The translations under genes and the position numbers were made by a program. This document shows positions 4,032 through 24,108 of a stretch of DNA of 46,935 nucleotides, in pieces. Each line of letters opens with the position of its first letter. The first letter of the stretch is position 1. The notes under the pieces are model-generated. The model did no database searches and was not told the DNA's origin. It saw only the letters and a list, made by a program, of their open reading frames with translations. The DNA is from a virus, in the IMG/VR virus record IMGVR_UViG_3300002542_000002; one strand, 5' to 3'.

Positions 4032-4727
4032 TTATAAGCCGAGCCGGATCTTAATCTCGTCGATAACGCTCTCGTAATCGTCGCCATGAGTCGCCTTGAT
4101 CTCTTGGATCCATGTATTATAAACGTCGGCATTTACCATAAACTCGTATTTTCCGATCTTGAAAAATACCTCTTTCGGCGGTTTTTCTTCTTGAGGCTCC
4201 TCGTATGGTAGCTCCTCCGGCTCCGGATCCTCTTTTTCGATCTCTCCCGGATCCGATCCGCCTCCCAGCTCGTCGAAATCGGAGGTATCCATCTCTAATT
4301 GATCGAGATCATCTAACCCGGCGAGCAAGCTATCGAGATCCTCCTCGTCGAAACCTGTAAGCTTTAGCTCCGGCGTTTCTAACTCTTGGACGAGTTGAGC
4401 GAGTTTATCGAGATCCCACTCCGAGCCGACTTTAGGGTTATTAAGTGTAATGTTTAACGCTTTTTCCTTCTCGAGCGGGAGATCGACTACCGATACTTTT
4501 ACCTTTTGGATCCCCTCGTCGAGATACATATAATATCTTTGATGACCGCCGACGATGTTCCCGGTACGTTTGTTCCATACGATCGGGAGTACTTCCCCAA
4601 ACTCCATAAGGGAAGCTTTTAGCTTTTCGTACCCTTTATCTCCCCGGCGGAGGATCTTTCTCGGGTTGTATTCGGCGGGTTTGAGATCTTTTATATCGAC
4701 GGTTTGCATTTCTATCGCTCTAATCAT
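4032..4727 (-). CDS. ParB N-terminal (ParB/Srx nuclease-like) domain protein with acidic C-terminal half
   Basis: 231 aa. DIKDLKPAEYNPRK ... IVGGHQRY motifs are typical of the ParB-like domain. Residues ~120-190 are strongly acidic (DEEDLDSLLAGLDDLDQLEMDTSDFDE...). Confidence 0.7.
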   Translation of the reverse strand: MIRAIEMQTVDIKDLKPAEYNPRKILRRGDKGYEKLKASLMEFGEVLPIVWNKRTGNIVGGHQRYYMYLDEGIQKVKVSVVDLPLEKEKALNITLNNPKVGSEWDLDKLAQLVQELETPELKLTGFDEEDLDSLLAGLDDLDQLEMDTSDFDELGGGSDPGEIEKEDPEPEELPYEEPQEEKPPKEVFFKIGKYEFMVNADVYNTWIQEIKATHGDDYESVIDEIKIRLGL

Positions 4728-10301: not shown

Positions 10302-11636
10302 TTAGCTTGCTTCGCCGAAACGGCGCTCGAGGTTAAGAAACTTATTCCACTCTTTGATATAGGCGAGCTGTACCGTTCCGGTCGATCCTTCCCTATTTTT
10401 AGCGATAATAAGCTCGATTATGTTTTTATTTTCCGTATCCTTGTCGTAATAATCATCCCGGTAAAGGAAAATAACGATATCGGCATCTTGTTCGATCGAG
10501 CCGCTATCCCGGATATCCGATAGCATCGGTCGCTTATCTTGCCGCTTTTCGACTTCCCTCGAGAGCTGGGATAAGGCGATAACCGTACAATTAAGATCAT
10601 TAGCCATATTTTTAAGCGCCCGAGAGATCTCGCTTATCTCTAAGTTACGGTTTCCTTGATAGTTGCGGCTCGGTTTAATGAGCTGGAGATAGTCGATAAC
10701 TACGATATGATGTTTATCCGGATAGTCTTTCATGTTTTCCCTTACTCTCGCCCGGATCTCCTCGACGGTGATCGTACTCTCGTCGCAAATATCGAGATTT
10801 TCCTCCCATTGACTCATAACGCTAAGCGCATGAGAGTATTTCGTCCAATCCTCATCATCGAAATACTCGATCGGATTTTTTACTTTGCGTCCGTCGATAT
10901 TGCCTAAGCATGATATCATCCGGTTTGTTAATTGATCCTCGCCCATTTCCAGCGAGAAGATAGTAGCGAAAACCTCCTCATCTTTACCGAGCGATCTTTC
11001 GATAGTGTTATTAACGATATTTAAAGCGAAAGCCGTTTTCCCTACCGACGGTCGAGCGGGTACGATGATGAGCTTTTTCTTTTCCAATCCCTCGAGCATG
11101 ATATCGAGATCATTAAATCCGGTTTCGGCTCCGACTAATCCTCTTTTCATGTTTTCCATTCGACTATATTTATCGATTAAATGCTCCCTTATGGAAAAGC
11201 GTTTTCTCCGCCGCCCGGTATTCTCGATCTCCTCGATCTCTTGGCGGATTTTAGCGTCAATCTCGTCATCATCGAGGTTAGTAAGCGCCTTTTGATAAAC
11301 CTTATACTTTTCCCGCCGCTTCCAATTATCGATAACGATACCCTCGTAAAACTTGATATTAGCGGTAGTCGGTACCGAGATCATCATATCGGAGAGGTAG
11401 CTTATCCCTCCCACTTCATTAACCCGCTCTTTTGCGATCTCCGCAATCGCTACGAGATCGATCGGGATCTCTTTTCGTTGTAGCTCTCTCATCCATTTAA
11501 AAAGCTTGATATGCTTAGGATCGGAGAAATGTTCCGGCTTAATAATGAGATCGTTTATAAGATCCGGCTCGAGTAAAACCGAGCCGAGTACCATTCTTTC
11601 CGCCTCGAAATTGTAAAACATAGCGATAGCATCCAT
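10302..11636 (-). CDS. dnaB: replicative DNA helicase, DnaB family (SPP1 G40P-like)
   Basis: 444 aa. N-terminal DnaB domain (FEAERMVLGSVLLEPD), Walker A PARPSVGKTAFALN, FSLEMGEDQLTNRM and VVIDYLQLI motifs. Confidence 0.95.
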   Translation of the reverse strand: MDAIAMFYNFEAERMVLGSVLLEPDLINDLIIKPEHFSDPKHIKLFKWMRELQRKEIPIDLVAIAEIAKERVNEVGGISYLSDMMISVPTTANIKFYEGIVIDNWKRREKYKVYQKALTNLDDDEIDAKIRQEIEEIENTGRRRKRFSIREHLIDKYSRMENMKRGLVGAETGFNDLDIMLEGLEKKKLIIVPARPSVGKTAFALNIVNNTIERSLGKDEEVFATIFSLEMGEDQLTNRMISCLGNIDGRKVKNPIEYFDDEDWTKYSHALSVMSQWEENLDICDESTITVEEIRARVRENMKDYPDKHHIVVIDYLQLIKPSRNYQGNRNLEISEISRALKNMANDLNCTVIALSQLSREVEKRQDKRPMLSDIRDSGSIEQDADIVIFLYRDDYYDKDTENKNIIELIIAKNREGSTGTVQLAYIKEWNKFLNLERRFGEAS

Positions 11637-11639
11637 CTT

Positions 11640-11972
11640 TTACGCTCTCCCCTTTGCTTGCTTGATAAAGTCCGGCATACGATCCTCCGGGATGTATTTA
11701 AGCGCTCCTTTTTTCATACCCTCCAGCCGTAAAACCTCGCCTTTATCTAAGTATCCCGAGTTAGCGGCGAAAGTCGGTACTCCCCGGAGATCCGCAATAG
11801 ATGGAGGGTACTTTTCCCGCTGGATATGGTTTTTAAGGTTTTCGAGTACGGTATAAAAATCTTGATCCTTTAACATCTCGCTCCATAGGTCTACCTTTTC
11901 CTCCGTTACCTCAAACATGTCATAAGCGTTCGCTATGAGGGAGAAAAGCTTGATTGTTTCCACCCGATCCAT
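11640..11972 (-). CDS. helicase loader/inhibitor, SPP1 G39P-like
   Basis: 110 aa. ETIKLFSLIANAYDMFEVTEEKVDLWSEMLKDQDF...KYPPSIADL matches the G39P-family N-terminal pattern. Immediately upstream of dnaB. Confidence 0.8.
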   Translation of the reverse strand: MDRVETIKLFSLIANAYDMFEVTEEKVDLWSEMLKDQDFYTVLENLKNHIQREKYPPSIADLRGVPTFAANSGYLDKGEVLRLEGMKKGALKYIPEDRMPDFIKQAKGRA

Positions 11973-14781: not shown

Positions 14782-15720
14782 TTACTCGAAAAATACCTCC
14801 TTGCCGTTATACTCGACGGTTTTCCCGGTCGATACGTCCGTTACCGTTATCGTATTTTGAGCGCTCTCCTCTTGGATCTCTTTAAGCTCCTCCGGCTCTC
14901 CCTGCTTGTCCGGTTTTTGCGCTGGAGTTTGATCCTCGGCTCGTTTTGCTTGCTCCGCTTGTTTTGCCTTTTCCGCTTGCTTAGCTTGGATCTTACCGAG
15001 GAGGATTTGATCTATCCAATCGAGATCTTTACCCTCCGCTTGTTTCTTAGCGATATACTCTTTCAATCCCTCGAGGGATCCGTTATTTAATACTTTCCAT
15101 TTTGCCTCAATGCTAGAGATAGAGGCTTTCGGTTTTTGTTGTTTAGTTTGTGTCTTTTTGTTGCCGCTGGAGCCGCTTTTCGTTTGTGATCCTTTGCCGC
15201 TGGATCCTTTAGCCGCTTTCGGCTCCTCGAAAACTTGCTCGCTATCTCCATACTCCGGATCATTCTCTTTCTCCCCGGTCGAGATGAGAAAGTTATTAAT
15301 GAGATAGTACTTAATACATCCGGAGTATGCTTTATAAAGTCCTTTGTCGCCTGTATCGGTAGCGACTCCTTTCGATCGTTTAACGTCCATATATCCGGTA
15401 TCGTTATCCGTTAGGATAAACTCCATCGTAACAGTATGGAGCCATGCTTTCCCTTGTCGAGTTTGTACCTCCTCCTTTTCGTCCGAGATTAACTCTACAT
15501 CGAGCGTTAATCCCGCCTCGCTTAATAAGGATCTTACTCCCTCTTTGATATCCGACTCGGTAGAATATTCGTATTTATGGAAGTCATTCCATCCATTTTT
15601 AGCGATCCGTTGAATAGATCCGACGACTTTCGCTTTTTTCTTTTGGAGCTTAGCTCTTAGCTCGAGGATTTTTAAACGTTCCTCGAGCGGCATCGCTTTT
15701 ATTTCTTCGACTGTATACAT
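14782..15720 (-). CDS. erf: ERF-family single-strand annealing recombinase
   Basis: 312 aa. ...IAKNGWNDFHKYEYSTESDIKEGVRSLLSEAGL...GDKGLYKAYSGCIKYYLINNFLISTGE..DPE matches the ERF core. Low-complexity K/Q/A-rich C-terminal half. Confidence 0.75.
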   Translation of the reverse strand: MYTVEEIKAMPLEERLKILELRAKLQKKKAKVVGSIQRIAKNGWNDFHKYEYSTESDIKEGVRSLLSEAGLTLDVELISDEKEEVQTRQGKAWLHTVTMEFILTDNDTGYMDVKRSKGVATDTGDKGLYKAYSGCIKYYLINNFLISTGEKENDPEYGDSEQVFEEPKAAKGSSGKGSQTKSGSSGNKKTQTKQQKPKASISSIEAKWKVLNNGSLEGLKEYIAKKQAEGKDLDWIDQILLGKIQAKQAEKAKQAEQAKRAEDQTPAQKPDKQGEPEELKEIQEESAQNTITVTDVSTGKTVEYNGKEVFFE

Positions 15721-15881
15721 TACTTCCCGCCTCCCAGCATCGCTTTATTTAAAAGTTTGTCCAATTCTTGCGATAAGCGGATCGTTTCCGGATGATTTAA
15801 GCCGTATTTTTGCCCGGCGGCGATCATCTCCTCCCGCTTACGCTCGATCTCCTTTCTAAGCTTTCCTAATCTTTTACTCAT
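15720..15881 (-). CDS. Spo0E-family aspartyl-phosphate phosphatase-like protein (53 aa)
   Basis: Hand-translated (below track threshold): MSKRLGKLRKEIERKREEMIAAGQKYGLNHPETIRLSQELDKLLNKAMLGGGK. Carries the Spo0E signature SQELD in a two-helix context. TAATG overlap with the ERF start. Confidence 0.7.
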   Translation of the reverse strand: MSKRLGKLRKEIERKREEMIAAGQKYGLNHPETIRLSQELDKLLNKAMLGGGK

Positions 15882-18590: not shown

Positions 18591-18640
18591 GTTTTAACCC
18601 TCCCCTTAAAATACGTCCGGATGAAAATCCCGGACATAAT

Positions 18641-18660
18641 TATTTATTTATTTATTTATT
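18641..18660. repeat. (TATT)5 microsatellite
   Basis: tatttatttatttatttatt read directly. Confidence 0.9.
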
Positions 18661-18682
18661 AATTCTTTATATATAATTCTTG

Positions 18683-18858
18683 TTTGTGCAAAAAATGTTG
18701 TCAAAAACAGTTGTCAAAAATCACTTGTTGAGGTTGTTAAAAATCCGAAACGAAAAACGGCGGATCCCTTGATACTCTAGGGATTAAAGGAGGTATTAGG
18801 TTGTCAAAGATCACGAAAGAAGGTTGTCAAAAAGGGTTGCAAAAAAGGTTGTCAAAAA
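18683..18858. repeat. array of eight same-orientation 11-bp iterons GTTGTCAAAAA (two clusters of four)
   Basis: Perfect copies at 18697-18707, 18710-18720, 18823-18833 and 18848-18858. One-mismatch copies at 18733-18743 and 18800-18810. Degenerate copies at about 18683-18695 and 18836-18846. Centre-to-centre spacings are 12-13 or 23 nt. The complement of each copy reads TTTTTGACAAC. Confidence 0.85.
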
Positions 18859-18970
18859 TGATTTTATTTCCCGATCATTTCCCGATCGAAAAGGAGGCGG
18901 TAAACATGGTACCTCTCGGGTACATCCTTGTAATCATCGGCGGCATTATCGTTATGGTTAAAGCCTTTTA

Positions 18971-19189
18971 TTAATCGTCTAACTTAAACTTGATCCCTCC
19001 GGATCCAGCCGAGCGAATCACTTTAGAAGATGGAGCGGGAGAGGCGGCTTTCCTTACCGCCCGATCCCGCTCGATTAACCCTTTTACATACGCCGAAAAG
19101 TTTTTAAATTGTAGCGTATACCGATAAAGCTCCGCTTGAGCTGGATCCTCGAGATTAAAGGCGACTCCTCGAGTTTTTATAGCGCTCAC
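18971..19189 (-). CDS. ribbon-helix-helix (CopG/Arc/ParG/ParR-like) DNA-binding protein
   Basis: 72 aa. TRGVAFNLEDPAQAELYRYTLQFKNFSAYVKGLIERD fits a beta-strand/helix/helix RHH pattern. GTG start overlaps the upstream stop (GTGA). Confidence 0.55.
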   Translation of the reverse strand: MSAIKTRGVAFNLEDPAQAELYRYTLQFKNFSAYVKGLIERDRAVRKAASPAPSSKVIRSAGSGGIKFKLDD

Positions 19190-24079: not shown

Positions 24080-24108
24080 ATTATAAAGCTTTTTGTTTCA
24101 TTTGTAAA
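24080..24108 (-). promoter_or_regulatory. sigma-A type promoter, class I (TTTACA-17-TATAAT)
   Basis: Minus strand reads TGTTTACAAATGAAACAAAAAGCTTTATAAT. Confidence 0.75.

Follow-up and report, generated by a model that had tools for sequence, protein, structure and literature searches.

Direct repeats that lie beside an A + T-rich stretch are found at the ori of phage lambda (with the O protein), in iteron plasmids, and at oriL and oriR of phage SPP1 (with the G38P organiser). The Rep-dependent origins of the Staphylococcus aureus pathogenicity islands (SaPIs) have two sets of short iterons and a lineage-specific matching of initiator to iteron. Two clusters of 11–12-bp direct repeats around a central promoter-like region are known from R1 parC, with ParR, and from pBtoxis tubC, with TubR. 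Described here is an array of eight same-direction 12-mers, TTTTT-NN-CAACC, found on the gene (minus) strand at 18682–18858 of IMG/VR virus record IMGVR_UViG_3300002542_000002. This record is 46,935 nucleotides long and is referred to as the window. The array is real and highly non-random. The explanation best supported is that it is an iteron-type phage replication origin and also the operator of a long operon that ends in replication genes, with the encoded replisome organiser as its likeliest reader. This is proposed tentatively, at somewhat less than an even chance, on the strength of sequence comparisons and structure predictions.

The eight copies form two clusters, and their common orientation and spacings, as given in the sequence-only reading of this DNA, are borne out by a motif scan and a listing of the copies. 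Across the whole window, GTTGTCAAAAA has four exact and two one-mismatch matches, the same counts as before, all on the plus strand at 18697–18858; 0.53 would be expected by chance. With the central dinucleotide left free and no more than one mismatch allowed (GGTTGNNAAAAA), seven of the 11 matches in the window fall inside 18696–18858. The 11-mer of the array was not found elsewhere in the 46.9-kb genome, exactly or with one mismatch, and the density of the motif thus gives no ground for doubting the array. The repeat unit had been described as an 11-mer. The repetition stands, with the 12-mer as its natural unit.

Start-to-start spacings in the window are 12, 13, 23, 67, 23, 13 and about 12–14 nt. 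The layout is one of 3 + 1 / 1 + 3 direct repeats with mirror-symmetric spacing. From a copy in one cluster to its counterpart in the other is a distance of 115 or 126 nt, equal to 10.95 or 12.0 helical turns, which places both clusters on the same face of the DNA. A perfect TTGACA had been reported in every copy. It is present in five of the eight, and the other three read TTTGCA, TTAACA and TTTGCA. The central dinucleotide is GA in five copies, AA in one and TG in two.

The repeats are not codon repeats: in six of seven related loci every frame across the array is interrupted by stops, and the best frame is not the same from locus to locus. Nor are the spacings multiples of 3. A conserved protein-coding sequence had been named as a possible alternative explanation, and no conserved open reading frame (ORF) lies over the array. 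A 57-amino-acid plus-strand ORF at 18801–18974 was rejected as a gene, as it is not conserved; conservation is limited to its last 22 codons, which form an antisense micro-ORF (see below).

Related loci were gathered by way of three proteins encoded in the window, a VirB4-like ATPase, a ribbon-helix-helix (RHH) protein and the organiser. Among the relatives collected, the array is confined to the closest clade, where its architecture is conserved almost base for base. The conserved order begins with two copies of CCGGGAAAT, followed by three iterons, a gap of one unit, one iteron and a spacer with ..CCTAGAG..TCAAGGGAT.. in it. It continues with one iteron, a gap and three iterons, the last fused to CACAAACAAGAAT. 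At the end are an A + T-rich stretch with two to three copies of AAGAAT(G)TAT, the palindrome GTCCGGGAT..ATCCCGGAC and the ribosome-binding site (RBS) of the next gene. The spacing 12-13-23-67-23-13-12 is essentially the same in the window and in loci L002, L005, L261, L263, L274, L033 and L256; L002 and L263 depart from it slightly in the downstream cluster. The sequence of the 55-nt spacer diverges among relatives while the 67-nt distance between the inner iterons stays.

The central dinucleotide differs by lineage. It is GA in the window, L001/L276, L002, L005, L261 and L274, and AA in L263. CG is found in L259/L260, which cover the upstream part of the array, and in L003/L004, which cover the downstream part; TC is found in L033 and L256–L258. 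A distant type from the Bacillus cereus group, L278/L279, has a TGACA[A/G]C core with a period of 22–23 nt and retains the central and terminal blocks. All eight copies change together under a fixed geometry, which points to a phage-encoded, diversified reader. Concerted change of this kind is the behaviour expected of initiator/iteron specificity sets. Lineages other than GA read TTCGCA, TTTCCA or TTAACA where the GA lineage has TTGACA. The hexamer is thus an accident of the GA lineage and not a conserved feature. A loose pattern, TTTTTNNCAACC..TTTTTNNCAAC, was also scanned against viral and metagenome contigs; it gave about 160 loci, nearly all of them unrelated coding or simple repeats, and the L033 contig was the only true relative.

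Several Logan assemblies break inside the iteron clusters: L001, L003, L004 and L276 start there, and L259 and L260 end there. The breaks are likely caused by identical k-mers in the two clusters, which split the assembly graph. Short-read unitig collections would then systematically lack such arrays or contain them in pieces. A packaging site or genome end at the array was considered and rejected, because identical k-mers explain the breaks better and the terminase genes are distant. Contigs of ~46.9–47.7 kb that carry the RHH and organiser genes of the window suggest that the array is internal, as it is in the window. A separate peculiarity is present upstream of the array in L274 (3740–4085), where there are about nine copies of AAAAAAACCGGAGG and a ~25-nt segment (agtcataccaagggattgagcc), present three times, with a match to the region in which the micro-ORF starts. 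This segment of L274 looks like a rearranged, repeat-rich junction.

The last iteron abuts the most A + T-rich DNA of the genome. Positions 18636–18675 are 97% A + T, the highest value at window sizes of 40, 60 and 100 nt, and an A + T-rich stretch is conserved beside the array in relatives. A unique multi-copy cluster of direct repeats and an adjacent A + T-rich region, two features of iteron origins, are both present, and no other iteron cluster was found in or near the replication genes. The general idea put forward beforehand, that a DNA-binding protein occupies the array as a phased origin-like or centromere-like platform, is supported by the uniqueness of the array, its conserved geometry and the adjoining A + T maximum. 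No DnaA boxes were found near the array. The array region matches no Rfam family, and a MicC match (E = 0.15) is noise.

Conserved elements bracket the array. The tandem 11-mer on its upstream flank is kept as two copies of CCGGGAAAT in the GA, AA and CG lineages. Pairing of the downstream palindrome is retained in relatives, with a shift in the position of the bulge. A core, CCGGGA, is common to the tandem 11-mer (CGGGAAAT twice) and the palindrome, and both elements are retained in L274, which is without RHH.

The array is independent of the genes that immediately surround it in the window. L274/L275 have no RHH, membrane-protein or ATPase gene and retain a complete GA-type array with its flanking motifs, placed directly upstream of the ERF, five-HTH (helix-turn-helix), XRE, HTH_36, organiser, loader and DnaB genes. 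The module of RHH, micro-ORF, membrane-protein and ATPase genes is present in TP-84, PK2.1, BpsM-61, 031MP002 and PBC5, and also in D6E, all of them array-less. In the first five phages the gap at the module is only ~120–140 nt. The distance from the micro-ORF to the gene of the 140-amino-acid membrane protein is only ~50–60 nt in array-less relatives, and in the window the array fills this interval. In a set of about 90 loci, by comparison, the organiser, HTH_36 and five-HTH proteins were confined to relatives that carry the array.

Candidate readers were compared by covariation with iteron type. The set consisted of four GA lineages (the window, L005, L274 and L276) and a single lineage each for CG (L003) and TC (L033). 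The count was of alignment columns that are invariant among the four GA sequences and different in both the CG and the TC sequence, and it was compared with the 14 other choices of two outliers. For the organiser, the partition by iteron type is the top one with five columns, and every other partition has three or fewer; no other candidate of the five displays this. The HTH_36 and five-HTH proteins have one column each (not the top partition for the latter) and the XRE and ERF proteins none. No covariation with iteron type was thus detected for the XRE, HTH_36, five-HTH and ERF proteins, nor for a 64-amino-acid HTH protein. A version of the organiser test with two GA sequences was uninformative, and the signal comes from the four-GA set.

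The N-terminal domain of the organiser is predicted to be a winged helix (AF2 pLDDT ~95), with the recognition helix at residues 79–91 (DTTLWNWLKKLEK). T80, the second residue of this helix, is among the five covarying columns. The triplet at the start of the helix reads DTT in all four GA lineages, DRT in TC, EST in CG and KST in the 23-nt type. Among organisers of the family DTT is the most frequent triplet, as GA is the most frequent iteron type. The start of the recognition helix, compared over seven lineages, is the only candidate feature that tracks iteron type; this is weak evidence, suggestive and not proof.

A scheme for the array as origin and operator can be outlined. Eight protomers (4 + 4) would bind the direct repeats, most probably by way of the N-terminal winged helix of the organiser, and the 140-amino-acid HTH_36 protein might join the organiser there. 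With their fixed spacing on one DNA face, the two clusters could be bridged or wrapped into one complex. The complex would stress and open the adjoining 97% A + T stretch, where the helicase loader and the DnaB-like helicase would then be loaded. Occupancy would also set the transcription of the operon, because iterons 6–8 cover the −35 and spacer of a promoter-like site: TTGACA at 18704–18699, 17 nt, and AAGAAT at 18681–18676 (a 10/12 match). This site runs counter to the earlier statement that no copy has a properly spaced −10. As the array is in a divergent control region with outward −10-like hexamers, binding must in any case affect transcription as well.

Several points weigh against the origin proposal. 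A distance of 5.7 kb separates the array from the organiser gene downstream; both are on one strand and apparently belong to one operon. The intervening genes are common to array-less phages, so that origin and initiator do not form one contiguous module. A period of 12 nt is unusually tight for origin iterons. The outward −10-like hexamers are explained equally well by a purely transcriptional role, and the slight variation of the central dinucleotide within the array may mean that it is read only loosely. Both the binding and the replication role of the organiser are predicted, and a fold search gave weak, generic winged-helix matches only, all with E > 0.02, RepA_N initiators and TubR included. 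A single CG and a single TC lineage underlie the covariation, with few independent switches. In addition, GA organisers are slightly closer to one another (58–61% identity) than to most others, and shared ancestry could therefore explain the covariation.

The main rival is a purely transcriptional array with no origin function, which is considered rather unlikely. A phage regulator, the five-HTH protein or another small DNA-binding protein, would bind the 4 + 4 sites cooperatively and either repress two weak divergent promoters, of the micro-ORF and of the long operon, or replace −35 recognition at them. The location fits, as the divergent control region that separates the antisense micro-ORF from the membrane-protein gene is taken up by the array. 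Iteron 7 provides the −35 of the promoter-like site, and the distance from AAGAAT to the last iterons is held in most relatives, with the hexamer degraded to AAAGAA/AAGAAA in the CG lineage. On the opposite strand, a TAnnAT-like hexamer was read from the sequences of six lineages 3–5 nt outside iteron 1. Hexamers resembling a −10 are thus found a few bases outside both outer iterons, AAGAAT facing the operon and TAnnAT facing the micro-ORF. A terminator-like site upstream of the array, at about 19557–19533, calls for a promoter downstream of it, and a conserved 5′ hairpin follows the array. The motif, however, is found at a single locus, though at least four strong TTTACA-17-TATAAT promoters elsewhere are without such sites, and the promoter-like −35 drops to 4/6 in the CG and TC lineages. 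The five-HTH protein, proposed as a binder in the sequence-only reading, does co-occur with the array, and its units resemble sigma-70 region 4. Its lack of covariation leaves it a possible but unsupported reader. Versions with four HTH units (L005, L274) accompany unchanged arrays, and a mirror layout of direct repeats could not be read twice alike by one polar multi-HTH chain. It is improbable that the array is a bidirectional promoter-recognition platform and not an origin, at which the four/five-HTH zinc-finger protein stands in for the −35 at two divergent promoters that have none. Were this so, the iterons would resemble −35 boxes because their reader is a sigma-4 mimic, and the lineage dinucleotides would represent private promoter codes between related phages.

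The remaining explanations carry far lower probabilities. It is very doubtful that the array is a centromere-like site for partition or anchoring to which the adjacent RHH protein (ParG/ParR/omega-like) or the ParB-like protein binds. Two short direct-repeat clusters do flank a central region, the RHH gene is immediately upstream, and RHH homologues in phages D6E and Novomoskovsk are annotated as "partition protein" or "ParG-like". Yet L274/L275 have the array and no RHH, and many phages have RHH and no array. The DNA-reading beta-strand of the RHH protein, KTRGVAFNL, is identical in GA phage L261 and CG phage L259; RHH was therefore rejected as the array binder it had been suggested to be. 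The RHH profile has no solved relative by sequence. The ParB-like protein, also suggested as a binder, is encoded far from the array and near the terminase genes. No partition NTPase of the ParA, ParM or TubZ type was found among the proteins scanned, those encoded between 354 and 26684. Neither integrase nor plasmid-maintenance genes were seen in the genome, and a plasmid collection gave no match. A host-factor site has a similarly slight chance, either as a sink for sigma-A region 4 or tandem −35 track, or as a cluster of imperfect Spo0A 0A boxes that ties phage development to sporulation, as is the case for phi29. The 0A box consensus is TGTCGAA, and functional tandem boxes are 3 bp apart with a 10-nt period (PMC2731898). 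The five TTGACA copies read TGTCAAA on the other strand, one mismatch from this consensus; the hosts are spore-forming Bacillaceae, and a Spo0E-like phosphatase gene is present in the phage. As host factors, Spo0A and sigma-A are conserved, yet the copies in close relatives of the other lineages are at least two mismatches from the 0A box and do not read TTGACA, which means that a sigma-A sink, tandem promoters or Spo0A boxes are not the conserved function, and the earlier idea of a sigma region 4 decoy falls with them. The period of 12–13 nt does not agree with 10 nt, a correctly spaced −10 accompanies a single copy, and the sole exact TGTCGAA of the window is at 2521, far from the array. Spo0A, sigma-H and SinR-type readings of the flanking AAGAAT repeats were judged by eye only and are unsupported.

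Least probable of all is a loading or recognition track, oriT- or clt-like, for the VirB4-like ATPase and its membrane partner, which had also been raised for the downstream ATPase. The array is directly upstream of the pilin/VirB3-like and VirB4/TrwK-like genes with an RHH gene in front, and relaxosome accessory proteins of the RHH type sit in front of such genes. An AF2 model of the ATPase (pLDDT 86) matches full-length TrwK/VirB4 (Foldseek 7o42/7o43, E ~1e-11) and the motor domains of TrwB and HerA, and residues ~150–250 carry type-specific substitutions. The ATPase was rejected as a sequence reader despite these substitutions. It is a VirB4-like protein, and sequence-specific reading of DNA is not known for VirB4-type ATPases. 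Moreover, the ATPase and membrane-protein pair is present in more than 80 loci without an array, and L274 has the array without either gene.

The candidate origin is part of a genome in which the minus strand carries all substantial ORFs (Table 1). The window looks like a complete, circularly permuted siphophage genome; the phage is of the Bacillus group and appears to be of the TP-84-like virulent type. Relatives by protein similarity are Geobacillus phages TP-84, PK2.1 and D6E, Bacillus phages 031MP002, PBC5 and BpsM-61, and Anoxybacillus and Brevibacillus prophages, the hosts of which are spore-forming Bacillaceae. No match to the window was found at the DNA level in the phage collection, and single-protein scans of viral contigs matched nothing or almost nothing. 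A gap of 380 nt between the RHH gene and the membrane-protein gene holds the array.

Table 1. Positions of the iterons, flanking elements and genes of the window (strand blank where none is given)
Feature	Position	Strand	Remarks
Iteron 1	18847–18858	−	TTTTTGACAACC; outer copy, upstream cluster
Iteron 2	18835–18846	−	TTTTTTGCAACC; variant central dinucleotide
Iteron 3	18822–18833	−	TTTTTGACAACC
Iteron 4	18799–18810	−	TCTTTGACAACC; inner single copy, 23 nt after iteron 3
Iteron 5	18732–18743	−	TTTTTAACAACC; inner single copy, downstream cluster
Iteron 6	18709–18720	−	TTTTTGACAACT
Iteron 7	18696–18707	−	TTTTTGACAACA; its TTGACA (18704–18699) is part of the promoter-like site
Iteron 8, degenerate	18686–18695	−	TTTTTTGCAC; 18682–18695 with the fused conserved block CACAAACAAGAAT
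Central spacer	18744–18798	−	55 nt; conserved block ..CCTAGAG..TCAAGGGAT..; 9-nt inverted repeat at 18764–18784
A + T-rich stretch	18636–18681	−	Two AAGAAT repeats (18676–18681 and 18662–18667); candidate DNA-unwinding element and/or promoter region
Palindrome/hairpin	18615–18635	−	GTCCGGGAT..ATCCGGAC; just upstream of the RBS of the 140-amino-acid membrane-protein gene
Tandem 11-mer	18866–18887	−	GATCGGGAAAT twice (gene strand); upstream flank of the array
Portal, head, tail and lysis genes	about 46.4 to 24 kb	−	First in gene order; small early genes next
RHH-like gene, 72 amino acids	18971–19189	−	Directly upstream of the array-bearing gap
Membrane protein, 140 amino acids	18168–18590	−	Type IV secretion system pilin/VirB3-like
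VirB4/TrwK-like ATPase, 722 amino acids	16003–18171	−	
Spo0E-like aspartyl-phosphate phosphatase	15720–15881	−	PF09388, E = 1e-18; ERF recombinase gene next
Five-HTH protein, 326 amino acids	13742–14722	−	Zinc finger and five tandem HTH units; alternative candidate binder
XRE regulator gene	between the five-HTH and HTH_36 genes	−	
HTH_36-type winged-helix protein, 140 amino acids	12929–13351	−	Possible organiser partner; co-occurs with the array
DnaD-like replisome organiser, 325 amino acids	11920–12897	−	Candidate iteron reader
Helicase loader	11640–11972	−	
DnaB-like helicase	10302–11636	−	SSB gene next in order
ParB-like protein	4032–4727		14 kb from the array; precedes the terminase small-subunit gene by about 1.9 kb
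Terminase small subunit	1668–2180	−	Large subunit after it; about 16.5 kb from the array

The antisense micro-ORF (18906–18974, plus strand) encodes 22 amino acids (MVPLGYILVIIGGIIVMVKAFY), has a strong RBS and is convergent with the RHH gene. Homologues, hydrophobic peptides of 20–26 amino acids, are present at the same position in 11 related loci, including the array-less TP-84, PK2.1, 031MP002 and D6E. The product of the micro-ORF could be a small membrane peptide or resemble a type I toxin.

Many phages and prophages of Bacillaceae retain the pair consisting of the pilin/VirB3-like membrane protein and the VirB4-like ATPase. In TP-84, the membrane-protein homologue has been reported as a virion protein (PMC5889276). 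The five-HTH protein displays an N-terminal C2HC zinc finger (PF10782) and five units of ~48 amino acids that resemble sigma-70 region 4 and IS630 HTHs; the homologues in L005 and L274 have four units, with unchanged arrays. The Spo0E-like gene is kept in relatives and suggests that the phage may interfere with the sporulation phosphorelay of its host.

Four near-consensus promoters, TTTACA-17-TATAAT (11/12 match), were detected on the minus strand at 24108, 22240, 21272 and 3292. The early region holds three of them, and the fourth precedes the terminase small-subunit gene by ~1.1 kb. These sites are likely to be the main promoters used by host RNA polymerase. The window also displays an extreme tetranucleotide bias. 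GATC occurs 715 times, or 4.1 times the expected number, an excess that parallels the 743 GATC sites reported for TP-84. CCGG is found at 2.9 and TCGA at 2.7 times expectation, CTAG at 0.12 and TGCA at 0.2, and GGCC and CGCG are absent where 116 of each would be expected.

Should the array be an origin, it would mark the start of replication in an uncultured group of TP-84-like Bacillaceae phages. The relatives would then provide a natural specificity series, in which arrays of identical architecture carry GA, AA, CG or TC cores, together with a 23-nt form, alongside changes of one to three residues in a recognition helix. Possible uses are in the study of initiator-origin diversification, in orthogonal replicons and in phage resistance by origin titration ("Per"-type) in Bacillus and Geobacillus. 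A more general lesson is that a perfect promoter hexamer within a repeat can be an accident of one lineage.

Like the lambda, SPP1 and iteron-plasmid origins, the array consists of direct repeats beside an A + T-rich stretch. As in those systems, the phage has genes for a predicted winged-helix organiser, for a helicase loader and for a helicase of the DnaB type; the specificity of the repeats varies between close relatives, and the repeats overlap a promoter-like site. The L278 type also shares the classical iteron period of 22–23 nt. Unlike these systems, the candidate origin described here has 12-nt repeats with a 12–13-nt period and a 3 + 1 / 1 + 3 mirror spacing, and is 5.7 kb upstream of the organiser gene, not inside or beside it. 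With the SaPI origins it shares two iteron sets of a lineage-specific type. In SaPIs, however, the A + T-rich region is between the iteron sets and the origin adjoins rep, whereas here the A + T-rich stretch is outside the downstream cluster. The resemblance to parC and tubC is in the two direct-repeat clusters that flank a centre with promoter-like elements, and in the small RHH gene that is adjacent here. It does not extend further, as no partition NTPase was found among the proteins scanned, RHH is dispensable (L274) and displays no covariation, and the genome appears to be of the virulent TP-84-like type.

A further comparison is with Geobacillus phage TP-84 itself. A cluster of GGGGTGACACTGGTGTCACTCC and partial copies, about five in all, is found at L042:11990–12140, or ~36.63–36.78 kb of the record (repeats ~36.6–36.9 kb). 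The cluster has A + T-rich flanks and is in the largest non-coding gap, just upstream of the replication genes; this gap and the promoters of TP-84 have been noted (PMC5889276). The cluster is a candidate for the TP-84 origin. The two phages are related, have all genes on one strand, carry the same RHH/membrane-protein/ATPase module and combine iterons with A + T-rich DNA. The TP-84 repeat differs in that it is unrelated in sequence and palindromic, is placed directly before the replication genes and goes with a different initiator. In kind, the array of the window belongs to a well-known class, and is unusual in its tight 12-nt packing, the mirror-symmetric spacing of its direct repeats and its clean series of lineage-specific cores.

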